Shown here piece by piece: positions 8,236 through 34,493 of a stretch of 64,000 nucleotides of DNA. Origin of the DNA: Phoronis australis (Eukaryota; Animalia; Phoronida); the NCBI GenBank assembly GCA_002633005.1, contig NMRA01000080.1, positions 339,291 to 403,290 of the forward strand. Reading direction: 5' to 3'. Each line of letters starts with the position of its first letter. The stretch's first letter is position 1. Under the pieces are notes generated by a model. That model worked only from the letters and a program-made list of their open reading frames with translations, was not told where the DNA came from and searched no databases. The translations under genes were made by a program, and so were the position numbers.

Positions 8236-8460
8236 ATGGATGGAAAACCGATGGAATTTACCATCAGCCAAGACGCCTATGTCATAACCGATGATGACAT
8301 ATACCGCGTGAGGAATTTATTTGGTGTTTTGCTCGATAGGCTAAGTTCAACCAAGCTCACTGCTCTCGCCTCTCATTCGGACAACAAAAACACAGTATGG
8401 ATGCAGATAAAACCCCTTTCCACTGGGCCCAGGTCCCAGGCAAACTGCGCAGCAGCAAAG
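8236..8460 (+). CDS. ZC3H12: ZC3H12-like exon 1 (first KH-like unit, [10 protein letters not shown]...NCAAAK)
   Basis: ATG at 8236 preceded by an in-frame stop (TAG 8188-8190); ends AAG|GTAATG (phase 0); joins in frame to the phase-0 acceptor at 20712. EFT..R..LFGV.L..W.Q...AK pattern resembles the N4BP1 N-terminus as recalled. Confidence 0.8.
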
Positions 8461-31500: not shown

Positions 31501-34493
31501 CTCATGACAGATAATGCCCTCATAACTAGTGTCCATTTCTGGTTATATGCCCACCCATGAATTTTTGGATTTGGAAATTTCCCTTAACCACCCTGGGGGT
31601 TAGTCAAATGTTTACTGTAGCGCTCATCTGTTTGTCAGTTTAAAGATTTTATGTTAGTTTTACCAAGAAGTTATATAGAAAAGAAGGAATAAAACTTGAA
31701 TACGAAATCAAATAAATAGGCACTGGTCATTTACAGGTATCCTGGATTTTGAGAACCTGTTCGAAGCGTGTTATTCTGTGGCAACTGGCTCTCGAAATCT
31801 GAGAACCCTTTATTAAAGTGACTTTTATCTTATAATACATACAGAGGATGATGGGTTTACTCACTAAAATTAATTTCAGGGCTTCGTCTATGTTTTCCAT
31901 CTATTTTGTGAGTTTTCCCAGCTCCGTTACAAACTCAAACTTGGGGACATATCTCCTATTTTTTTCTCACGGAACGTGTTTCTCTCCCCCTAGTTTCATG
32001 CCACCTGACGACCCTCTGGGTAGAAATGGACCCAGCCTGGAGAACTTCTTGCGGAAGGAACCCACTGTACCTGGTCCCGTGCCGGCTCCGTGTCCCTATG
32101 GCAGGAAGTGCACGTACGGCAACAAGTGCAAGTTCTTTCACCCGGAGCGAGGCCTGAAGCCGCAGAAGTCGGTTACAGAGAGCATACAAGAGGTGTCTCG
32201 CCAGAGGCTTCAAGAGATCTGCGAAAAAGATGCCAAGAAGTTGGTAACAAAAGGTTAGAGAGAACACAATAGTGTGATGTGGATTCTGTTGTATTTGCAA
32301 TGTGCAATTTGTCCAGCCACGATTATTGTTTAAAACATAGCTCTTTGTTGAGACAGTATGATGCGACTTCTGACTAGTTAAACTTTAGAGTTTTCTTTTT
32401 AATTTTGCTCCAATTTTAGCTAAAAAGCAATGCAATGATTTTGATGAAAACTTCAGGAAAAGTTGACAATGGGAAAGAGGGTCTAGCTTGTAGCGGCGTG
32501 GCTTATCTGCAAAACAATAGGAAAACGTCGCAGTAAATTGCAACAGTACTTACGTAACAGTATTATTGCAGTGCTTGAGGCCGAATGTGCAAATATCTTG
32601 AGTTAGAGCTATTTAACTCGGGAATATATGCAGTTAATAGGTATTACAGTTACAATGTATTACGACGAACTGCTTGGACTCGTGTAATTTGCTGCTTTGT
32701 TGATGTGTACGTGTCGTGTAAACGGTCGATTCGCTTTTTTATAGAACTACGTTTTATTAACGATGTTGATTGTTGGCCAAATTAATAGGAAGAAACTCAG
32801 AACAATTGTTGTCAGCCTTGTGTGTTTACATAAGACATTCCAACGTTTCGATGAAAATTACTCCACCATTTTCAAAGAAAATATCCAACCACCCCTAGTA
32901 TGGTCATATTTTCAGTATACTCGCGAAATTGGTGTCAGCTTTGAATACATCGTTATTTAATTTTGAGCAAGAGGGCTATGAATGATAGTTACTCTCATGC
33001 CTCTAGCAACTGTAAACAAACTCAGTCTTGAATAAGTCAGTCAAATTCAATGAAGTACCACAGTTGTTGTAACCTGCAAGTGATTCGTTTCAGTTGAGAC
33101 TGGTGGCAAGCAGACGATGAACAGCAAACGGCTGGCTGCGAGGACCATCACGCAGGTCAACTCCATCCCAGATTATAACAGTCAGTCGGTACCACCTCCC
33201 TTGCCATCAAGGTCCCATGAGAATCCTCCACTCAGTCAGTCGACACCCCATGTCCGCAGTGCCGAATGTCTACTGGATCAGCAGGAGACTGTGTCTAAAG
33301 CGTTTACTGGGAGTAGAAGAGGCCCTACTCTAAAGGTGTCTCTGTCAGGTAATGAGAAGACCAACGGACATCTACTTCATCACTGGAACTCTGATCTGCA
33401 TGACACTCTGCGCCCCACAAACTCTGACCCCAACCTGTTGTTTTCAGGTATTGATGATGGTGGTCATTTGGCCCTGGCCAAAAAATTGTCCGATGAAGGG
33501 TGCCAGGTGCCCTCTAGTGCACAGGTCACCCTGAGAGCAAAAGGGATGTCCTCACCGAAACCTTTTGACACTGGTGACATTAGTAATATTCACAGGAAAC
33601 TGCAACGTCAGCTAACACTTAAAGGATCTGAGGATCCTCGTGTTAAACAGCATTATCCAGATGTCCAGTCACAGCCACACTTACAGAGTCAGCTTGGCCA
33701 TAGGCAATTTCAAGAGAGCACAAGCTTCCCATTAAGTGACTCGTTTCTGAGCCACAGCAACTCATTTTCGTCAAATAACTTCTCATCGTTGCCAGAAAAA
33801 CTGCACCCTAATGCCGCCAACAAGGCGCCTGGTTTTGACCGGCACTCATTGCAGAGCCCCGTCGAAATGCGCAATAGCTGGCCAGACACCGCACGGCAGC
33901 AACGGCACACCCAGAGTCACATTCTCAGCCAGCATGGAGGTCTGTCACCATTGGTGGGTCGGGGAACTTTGCCCTACCCAGAGACGGACCAGAATAGTCG
34001 AGGGACTTGGCCCTCGAATTCATTCAACAATGCTTACCAACAGCACAGACCGTTCTCACCTTACCAGCACGAGTTCTACCATCAGGAAATGTCAGGAGCC
34101 TCTTCACCTGTTGTCTTGCAACAGTTCTACCACCAAACGCATCCAACACCGCCAGTACAACAACAACAGCAGCAGCAGCAGCATCATCAACATCAGCATC
34201 AACATCAACAACAGTACTGTCCTGAAACCTATCCAGTGACCTATTCGCCGTTCGCTCCACCTTACGCATCACCCTCATCCCCACAGCCCCCGTCTCTCCC
34301 TCCGAGGGCTGTGACCATAGTACAGCCCCCCGGGTTTGATGACGGTGCCCCCATCCTTCCACAGGATCCGCGCTACAACATGTACTACTACTTGATTGGA
34401 CTGTTCGCCGAAGAGAAAGTACGAAAGGTGATGAACAGGTATCCAGAGGAAAGGAACCCACAACAGATATGCGCTCACATACTCAACATGTGA
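8236..34493 (+). CDS. ZC3H12: Regnase/MCPIP (ZC3H12-family) endoribonuclease with N-terminal N4BP1/KHNYN-like di-KH region; spliced CDS join(8236..8460,20712..21406,24912..25051,29002..29236,31994..32253,33094..34493), 984 aa
   Basis: Six exons with GT-AG introns and matching phases (0,2,1,2,1) total 2955 nt = 985 codons with no internal stop. PIN motifs [13 protein letters not shown] and SNDNYRD; [19 protein letters not shown]; CCCH finger [18 protein letters not shown]-terminal helical domain. Exons 2-6 are very secure; exon 1 is somewhat less so. Confidence 0.92.
10476..10557. repeat. (CA)n microsatellite
   Basis: Directly visible. Confidence 0.97.
11403..13100. mobile_element. Kolobok-like non-autonomous DNA transposon
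   Basis: TTAA on both sides (11399-11402, 13101-13104); TIRs AGGAGAATACCA / TGGCATGCTCCT (10/12); subterminal inverted TGACGTCA blocks at 11538-11553 and 12960-12975. Confidence 0.65.
16222..17496 (-). mobile_element. HINE/Helentron-like non-autonomous element, copy 1, with ~145-bp internal tandem units
   Basis: Reverse-complement relative of 49604-50678: same terminal hairpins, partial subterminal IR, GACG-type microsatellite remnant, eight internal units. Confidence 0.75.
20382..20470. mobile_element. 89-bp TA-flanked mini-MITE (Tc1/mariner-like)
   Basis: Perfect 16-bp inverted termini TACCGTAATCGTTCGG / CCGAACGATTACGGTA. Confidence 0.75.
20712..21406 (+). CDS. ZC3H12: ZC3H12-like exon 2 (second KH-like unit, Ser-rich linker, UBA-like NTD, start of PIN domain)
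   Basis: ctttctttcag|AAA acceptor; [11 protein letters not shown]...QNDLLSELI (Regnase NTD); [13 protein letters not shown]; donor AG|gtaaga. Confidence 0.93.
24912..25051 (+). CDS. ZC3H12: ZC3H12-like exon 3 (PIN domain), absent from the ORF track
   Basis: tgtag|C CAT...; translates (S)[46 protein letters not shown]; donor G|gtaagt. Confidence 0.96.
26914..26945. repeat. (ACA)n microsatellite
   Basis: Directly visible. Confidence 0.9.
28248..28555. repeat. Degenerate ~23-bp minisatellite (agtggtaatgtgtaccacgttac-like)
   Basis: About 12 diverged tandem copies in ZC3H12 intron 3. Confidence 0.8.
29002..29236 (+). CDS. ZC3H12: ZC3H12-like exon 4 (PIN catalytic core)
   Basis: ttttgcag| acceptor; DQDLL...[21 protein letters not shown]...VSNDNYRDL...[11 protein letters not shown]; donor CA|gtaagt. 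Confidence 0.97.
31994..32253 (+). CDS. ZC3H12: ZC3H12-like exon 5 (end of PIN domain, CCCH zinc finger)
   Basis: ccccctag| acceptor; [41 protein letters not shown]; donor AAAG|gttaga. Confidence 0.96.
33094..34493 (+). CDS. ZC3H12: ZC3H12-like exon 6 (low-complexity S/P/Q/H region and C-terminal domain)
   Basis: cgtttcag| phase-1 acceptor in frame with the 458-aa ORF; ends [40 protein letters not shown], matching the Regnase CTD pattern. Confidence 0.93.

Follow-up and report, generated by a model that had tools for sequence, protein, structure and literature searches.

The 64,000-nt stretch analysed here, referred to as the window, comes from the phoronid Phoronis australis (contig NMRA01000080.1, positions 339,291 to 403,290, forward strand). 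On its plus strand it carries a gene of the Regnase (ZC3H12) family whose predicted protein begins with a pair of KH domains of the type found in N4BP1 and KHNYN, followed by a UBA-like N-terminal domain, a PIN nuclease domain, a CCCH finger and a C-terminal domain. We consider it quite probable that this is a transcribed and spliced Regnase which likely cuts mRNA, and that the KH pair is a protein-docking module inherited from the ancestor of the family. The coordinates of all features are collected in Table 1.

Transcript, N-terminal di-KH and Regnase core

The first-pass annotation of this DNA had joined an isolated open reading frame (ORF) at 8236-8460 to an acceptor at 20712. The ORF closes with a phase-0 GT donor, the acceptor site is TTTCAG, and the in-frame join connects AAAK to KYVLSL. 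The joint, which spans a 12,251-nt GT..AG intron, is seen in all four sequencing runs compared with the window. In run X1 it lies in one contig of 990 nt spanning 8172-8458 and 20710-21406, and in X2, X3 and X4 it is crossed by 8, 6 and 5 raw reads (19 in total) with 7, 6 and 5 distinct starts. Runs X2-X4 belong to one study and about 18-19% of each was sampled; X1 is only guessed to be RNA, yet its junction contig is spliced. All junction reads are first mates on the minus strand, the orientation that a stranded library gives for a transcript of the plus strand. Since the junction reads about match the depth early in exon 2 (12, 5 and 4 reads at 20900 in X2, X3 and X4), the main transcript is likely the form with exon 1. 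The same annotation had warned that a start at ATG 20739 would miss the N-terminal module; this codon is residue 85, and a protein starting there drops all of KH1.

Exon 1 is taken to start at the first in-frame ATG past a stop at 8188, and the transcript extends at least to 8172. The six-exon model codes for 984 residues with no internal stop and has GT-AG at all five introns; the reads show intron 1, and introns 2-5 are supported by homology, the open frame and splice signals. Another X1 contig, of 4,696 nt, begins at 24910. Spliced as modelled it would extend to near 37152, with an AATAAA 36 nt further on at 37188; this is consistent with the model but no proof of it. Near the start, the ATGs at 8170 and 8182 run in frame into the stop at 8188, and another ATG at 8229, out of frame, begins an ORF of 21 codons that overlaps the beginning of exon 1 (short ORFs within 8117-8292); such upstream ORFs could damp translation of the gene.

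For the proposal that the N-terminus is an N4BP1/KHNYN-like di-KH, the first-pass annotation had looked to a profile match or a KH fold in residues 1-150. The profile match is positive, the fold is reached through a chiton homolog and through KH2 of the window protein, and from these sequence comparisons and models we regard the di-KH nature of residues 1-146 as confirmed. Against a profile built from nine homologs and containing no rows from the window, residues 1-150 reach 51.5 bits, where the best of 1000 shuffles reaches 6.9. Against one built from 34 N4BP1-type proteins that lack the finger, they reach 38.8 bits (shuffle maximum 10.2). Exon 1 alone obtains 16.0 bits on the N4BP1-type profile, with an exon-shuffle maximum of 5.0 (0 of 1000). 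The family profile A1 matches the structures 9CS9 and 9HTS of KHNYN and 6Q3V of N4BP1 over positions 3-132 (E about 1e-8), and the human N4BP1 motifs quoted in the first-pass annotation agree with the sequence of 6Q3V.

The modelled di-KH of the chiton homolog (Liolophura, P0053) consists of two KH modules with a predicted local distance difference test score (pLDDT) of 92. It superposes on 9CS9, 6Q3V and 9HTS with template-modelling (TM) scores of 0.70-0.75 and a root-mean-square deviation (rmsd) of 2.3-2.9, while other tandem-KH chains among the matches listed reach a TM score of 0.40 at most; in VIA its Z scores are 14.5-15.0 over 129-134 residues. The exon-2 piece of the window protein is modelled as a type I KH, i.e. 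KH2, with pLDDT 84 and a best Z of 10.3 (rmsd 2.5 over 65 residues). One Atlas look-up gives structure matches in the clusters of ZC3H12B (TM 0.75), N4BP1 (0.76-0.79) and KHNYN (0.76), and no feature match. In the models, intron 1 would interrupt the last helix of KH1, the equivalent site lying inside helix 60-78 of the chiton homolog. An intron after KH1 is common to relatives, as isoforms of ZC3H12B and ZC3H12C part just before the same EY/DY dipeptide.

Several points weigh against this reading of the N-terminus. KH1 of the window protein is diverged: the Pfam model KH_N4BP1_1st matches exon 1 weakly and below cut-off (E 0.048), our first profile gives exon 1 alone 6.7 bits, and a phmmer search of exon 1 alone against the PDB returns chance matches only, with no KH structure. 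The N4BP1-type profile, and a corresponding Regnase-type profile, were drawn from a search whose query held window rows and are thereby not fully independent. The fold evidence comes from alignment-guided models of the chiton homolog and of the window KH2, not of the joined window di-KH, and KHNYN and N4BP1 are absent among the best 50 matches listed for the lone KH2 model.

Judged from its sequence, the remainder of the protein is that of a Regnase with a complete core. UBA_6, RNase_Zc3h12a and Regnase_1_C match above the Pfam cut-offs; the CCCH models of Pfam match weakly. The finger ligands C465, C471, C477 and H481 are intact, stand just after the PIN domain and fit the ZC3H12A finger structure 2N5K. 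All catalytic aspartates of the PIN domain are present (D300, D384, D385 and D403), and D300/D384/D385/D403/D407 are spaced like D141/D225/D226/D244/D248 of Regnase-1, as numbered in the accessible parts of PMC5499597 and PMC12982082. The PDB structures that exon 4 matches best are those of ZC3H12C, ZC3H12B and ZC3H12A, with ZC3H12C leading at 115.5 bits, against 68.3 bits for KHNYN.

Spread of the layout and family history

Both trees of the PIN domain place the window protein among protostome Regnases, a grouping with a support of 90/88 (not starred), well inside the finger-bearing side; the nearest named row is P0002 from Solemya (77% identity). In the first tree, which leaves out five partial PIN rows, the window protein lies inside a set of 24 Regnase rows with a support of 95 in the Shimodaira-Hasegawa approximate likelihood-ratio test (SH-aLRT). 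The second tree, which drops 10 finger-less and 8 named rows, gives the same position, unstarred. These trees are unrooted. From the UBA domain to the finger, a further tree puts the window protein on a long branch outside the vertebrate A/B/C clade (100/100). The gene is an ordinary Regnase, likely of a protostome, and on this last tree a likely co-ortholog of vertebrate ZC3H12A/B/C.

A search with the di-KH profile yields 86 representatives (clusters at 50% identity), 51 of which contain a PIN domain. Seventeen of these 51 have both UBA_6 and CCCH and 34 have neither, although three of the 34 stop within 20 residues of the PIN domain and are possibly truncated; 11 further representatives are fragments with KH and UBA_6. 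Searching with exon 2, we find PF23050 together with Regnase domains in 8 of 56 matches, including three named molluscs and four fishes. The mollusc Regnases P0002 (Solemya), P0053 (Liolophura) and P0055 (Mercenaria) have the same full layout as the window protein, with no architectural difference seen; their database entries describe no KH function.

The UBA-like N-terminal domain, the tetra-Asp PIN, the single CCCH finger and the C-terminal domain are shared with Regnase-1 to -4 (MCPIP1-4, ZC3H12A-D). However, the human Regnases are described without KH in the accessible parts of PMC12982082 and PMC7226360. With N4BP1/KHNYN (ex-diKH; 6Q3V, 9CS9, 9HTS) the window protein shares the packing of KH1 on KH2, as seen on the chiton homolog, and its PIN and C-terminal helical domain are related to theirs; unlike them it has the CCCH finger and UBA_6 and a PIN of the Regnase group, and it lacks both the helical bundle after KH2 and the arginines of the KHNYN cleft.

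These comparisons bear on the idea of a lineage-specific hybrid, in which a KH exon of N4BP1 was shuffled onto a Regnase gene. Its sole point is that KH and CCCH are listed as mutually exclusive in human proteins, as the accessible part of a review has it (PMC7226360). However, molluscs and vertebrate ZC3H12B share the layout, which is spread over the Regnase side of the tree in 17 clusters, and the window di-KH scores higher on the Regnase-type profile (58.5 bits) than on the N4BP1-type profile (38.8 bits). The hybrid is largely refuted, and we see next to no chance for it. In UniRef, the Regnase-type proteins P0054, P0081 and P0098 are named 'NEDD4-binding protein 1'; such mislabels could hide or fake architectures in surveys.

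According to the first-pass annotation, vertebrate ZC3H12A-D have no KH. This does not hold, since sawfish, bony fishes, coelacanth and amphibians have a ZC3H12B with a full di-KH. With the di-KH of the sturgeon as query, 36 of 40 matches carry PF23050; with the caecilian region 34 of 73 matches do. In both sets the named bearers of PF23050 are of the vertebrate ZC3H12B type, and among them are sawfish, sturgeon, gar, tarpon, salmonids, cyprinids, coelacanth, caecilian, axolotl and two frogs. In non-amniote ZC3H12B (P0095 Pristis, P0051 Huso, P0068 Danio, P0070 Latimeria, P0081 Microcaecilia, P0082 Ambystoma) the domain order and the position of the junction are identical to those of the window protein, the KH pieces being about 17-32% identical. 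Of four vertebrate proteins checked, three contain LVPRG, presumably a MALT1-type site, and the fourth has LVSRG; no site of this kind lies near the PIN domain of the window protein.

None of the 14 amniote ZC3H12B entries in the caecilian-query search carries PF23050. Twelve of them begin at a methionine inside the last helix of KH2 (P0103 and P0113 are among the amniote entries), a partial stork entry has 10 more residues upstream in frame in which the preceding KH2 strand is conserved, and one partial entry begins downstream of that methionine. The same short start is found in many fish and frog entries though relatives have the long form (Amia versus gar, Xenopus versus Ascaphus). This short start may reflect a genuine loss, a separate isoform or a default of the annotation. 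In the accessible part of PMC12982082, human ZC3H12B is given 836 residues, the same length as the short entries. It can be speculated that, with the di-KH ancestral to Regnases, amniote ZC3H12B, possibly including the human gene, still has an unannotated upstream KH exon. We rate this as unlikely, as the long form is found in 0 of the 14 amniote entries (no placental mammal is among the sequences examined). If true, the Regnase-2 of about 836 residues used in experiments is a truncation beginning inside KH2.

On the KH2 profile, individual ZC3H12C N-termini stay close to the level of shuffles, with 2.8 bits at best. A profile-profile comparison with ZC3H12B aligns 25 columns with a probability of 92% (0 of 100 column shuffles), the segments being cut on a shared motif and therefore biased; the comparison with invertebrate KH2 failed (89 of 100 column shuffles). 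The alignments suggest that ZC3H12C keeps the last strand and helix of KH2, i.e. a decay after loss of the KH1 exon.

As KH occurs on both sides of the split between Regnases and N4BP1-like proteins, the di-KH would be ancestral to both groups and predate that split. ZC3H12B and many invertebrates would have retained it, and it would have decayed or disappeared in ZC3H12A and ZC3H12C and in some of the arthropod and amniote entries. Separate N4BP1-like genes are reported from starfish, sea hare and lancelet (accessible part of PMC9888277). The first-pass annotation had also suggested that the window gene preserves the ancestral architecture. This is right in so far as the combined layout is old, with KH on both sides; however, the window gene nests within the Regnases and is not a relic from before the split.

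The CUE-like tail had been taken as a feature separating N4BP1/KHNYN from the C-terminal domain of Regnases. This distinction seems overstated, since the Pfam tail models for both groups cover the same residues in three relatives (P0157, P0103 and P0113); by sequence, the two tails look like one homologous domain. The window tail itself matches Regnase_1_C only and not the CUBAN/CoCUN (CUE-like) model. The real differences between the families are the CCCH finger, the UBA_6 N-terminal domain and the helical bundle of KHNYN.

Between the Regnase and N4BP1-like groups falls P0165, a protein of 760 residues with a di-KH, UBA_6, PIN and CCCH, in which both KH modules have GxxG-type loops (Pfam KH_1 E 3.7e-15). 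From its sequence it is a candidate for the ancestral RNA-binding form. Because of its position two changes of the finger are needed, in 200 of 200 bootstrap trees examined, yet a topology with all finger-bearing proteins on one side is not rejected (p-AU 0.45 on an unrooted tree). We lean slightly towards a finger that was lost in N4BP1 rather than gained in Regnases.

Likely role of the KH pair

By analogy with other Regnases, the window protein likely cuts mRNAs. As known for the family, the PIN domain would cut RNA using a divalent metal and the CCCH finger would help to select stem-loop targets in 3' untranslated regions (UTRs). The KH pair is likely a protein-docking module because it has neither GxxG loops, none being found in residues 1-150, nor the helical bundle of KHNYN. 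Its partner would be a protein, the most plausible candidate being the decapping scaffold EDC4, and binding it would bring the nuclease to processing bodies (P-bodies), as reported for human N4BP1, whose KH pair binds EDC4 and is needed for P-body location (accessible part of PMC13586276). The linker after KH2 is rich in Ser and Asp (30% Ser).

Against docking of this kind stand several observations. The docking partner is uncertain because the EDC4-binding loops of N4BP1, QSRG and GAES, are not kept in the window protein, and in the accessible part of PMC13586276 RNA silencing by N4BP1 is independent of EDC4. The arginines R33 and R65 of the KHNYN cleft, needed for activity, align with N27 and A73 in our reading of the alignments. 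The window protein scores 1.0 bit on the profile of the helical bundle after KH2, and 17 finger-bearing proteins at most 6.8 bits, against 16-80 for the training rows, which are inflated by self-scoring.

A KH pair that binds RNA directly would add target specificity to the PIN domain and the finger. The canonical type I fold of the KH2 model speaks for it, as does P0165, which branches deeply and whose GxxG-type loops indicate that the ancestral module may have bound RNA. However, the window pair has no such loops, and the KHNYN di-KH bound none of the RNAs tested in the accessible part of PMC11997328, so that we find direct RNA binding quite unlikely.

A slightly smaller chance goes to decay, i.e. 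to a folded but dispensable remnant that is heading for loss as in ZC3H12C. The weak KH1 signal, the lost cleft arginines, the several upstream ATGs near the start and the in-frame Met85 in exon 2 would all fit. However, reads that join exon 1 in frame are about as numerous as those over exon 2, the interface hydrophobics L28, F29, Y77 and L81 match I34, F35, Y69 and L73 of KHNYN, and the X1 contig differs from the window at just 4 of 287 bases of the exon-1 piece, with no gaps.

The di-KH of KHNYN is required for antiviral activity (accessible part of PMC11997328), and expression of each of the four human Regnases restricts RNA viruses, as stated in the accessible part of 10.64898/2026.07.06.736706. 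The label 'antiviral-type' in the first-pass annotation is overstated, though an antiviral role of the window protein is possible. However, a dedicated antiviral nuclease, in which the KH pair recruits the enzyme to a sensor of viral RNA as in KHNYN, is highly improbable, as ZAP arose in tetrapods (accessible part of PMC9888277) and worm REGE-1 is described, in the portion of the source at hand, as controlling ets-4 mRNA and metabolic pathways. Protein docking by an inherited KH pair remains the reading that we prefer.

Gene features, remaining sequence and meaning

Table 1. Features of the KH-bearing Regnase gene (positions in the window)
Feature	Position	Strand	Evidence
Coding exon 1 (residues 1-75), most of KH1	8236-8460	+	ORF, reads, profile score
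Intron 1, 12,251 nt, phase 0, GT-AG	8461-20711	+	Joint in 4 of 4 runs
Exon 2 (residues 76-307): end of KH1, KH2, linker, UBA-like N-terminal domain, start of PIN with D300	20712-21406	+	
KH2 within exon 2	about 20742-20924	+	
UBA-like N-terminal domain within exon 2	21138-21263	+	UBA_6 E 1.6e-12
Exon 3: PIN domain	24912-25051	+	RNase_Zc3h12a E 3e-13; under 4,696-nt X1 contig
Exon 4: PIN with D384, D385, D403, D407	29002-29236	+	E 1e-30
Exon 5: end of PIN and CCCH finger	31994-32253	+	ZC3H12A PIN-finger chains, E 2.6e-25
CCCH finger (C465, C471, C477, H481)	32091-32141	+	Isolated finger 2N5K, E 3.8e-9
Exon 6, coding part: long S/P/Q/H-rich region, then C-terminal domain; acceptor inferred	33094-34493	+	
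C-terminal domain within exon 6	34362-34484	+	Regnase_1_C E 1.7e-6, above cut-off
Stop codon	34491-34493	+	
Likely 3' UTR, about 2.7 kb, inferred	34494-37193	+	Extent of X1 contig, AATAAA at 37188

The window is AT-rich, intron-rich eukaryotic DNA. Among 30 other ORFs of the 143 listed, only four weak Pfam matches are found, all below cut-off. Two repeats in intron 1 (11277-13109 and 16165-17997) lie under hundreds of RNA reads, most of them 90-95% alike; the reads fall on both strands of the first and mostly on one strand of the second, and they are likely transcribed copies of mobile elements elsewhere. The segments 16038-16780 and 50062-50695 belong to the same repeat element as two related copies; long stretches are common to the translations of their ORFs. 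On the minus strand, 61371-62132 contains broken frames with no Pfam match at E 0.05; by their motifs, these frames resemble the reverse transcriptase of a long interspersed nuclear element (LINE). A tandem repeat at 60502-60808 is seen in the translations, and a dinucleotide-type repeat at 10468-10568 was skipped in the read comparison.

Our literature searches found no description of KH domains on a Regnase, though figures and supplementary alignments could show the layout, and it is visible in databases, where precomputed Pfam matches already mark PF23050 on KH-bearing Regnases. The KH-bearing Regnase is a real and widespread, apparently undescribed variant of a known family, and the di-KH is likely an overlooked ancestral part of that family, not a one-off hybrid.

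The window gene is one ordinary case of this widespread form, and the main interest lies in the lead to vertebrate ZC3H12B. That amniote Regnase-2 is possibly annotated from an internal start is a possibility that can be checked, and the long and short forms of ZC3H12B in zebrafish or axolotl are natural constructs for asking what a KH pair that does not bind RNA binds instead. With a KH pair on many Regnases, including a vertebrate paralog, the Regnase and N4BP1/KHNYN groups would represent one design from which parts have been lost.

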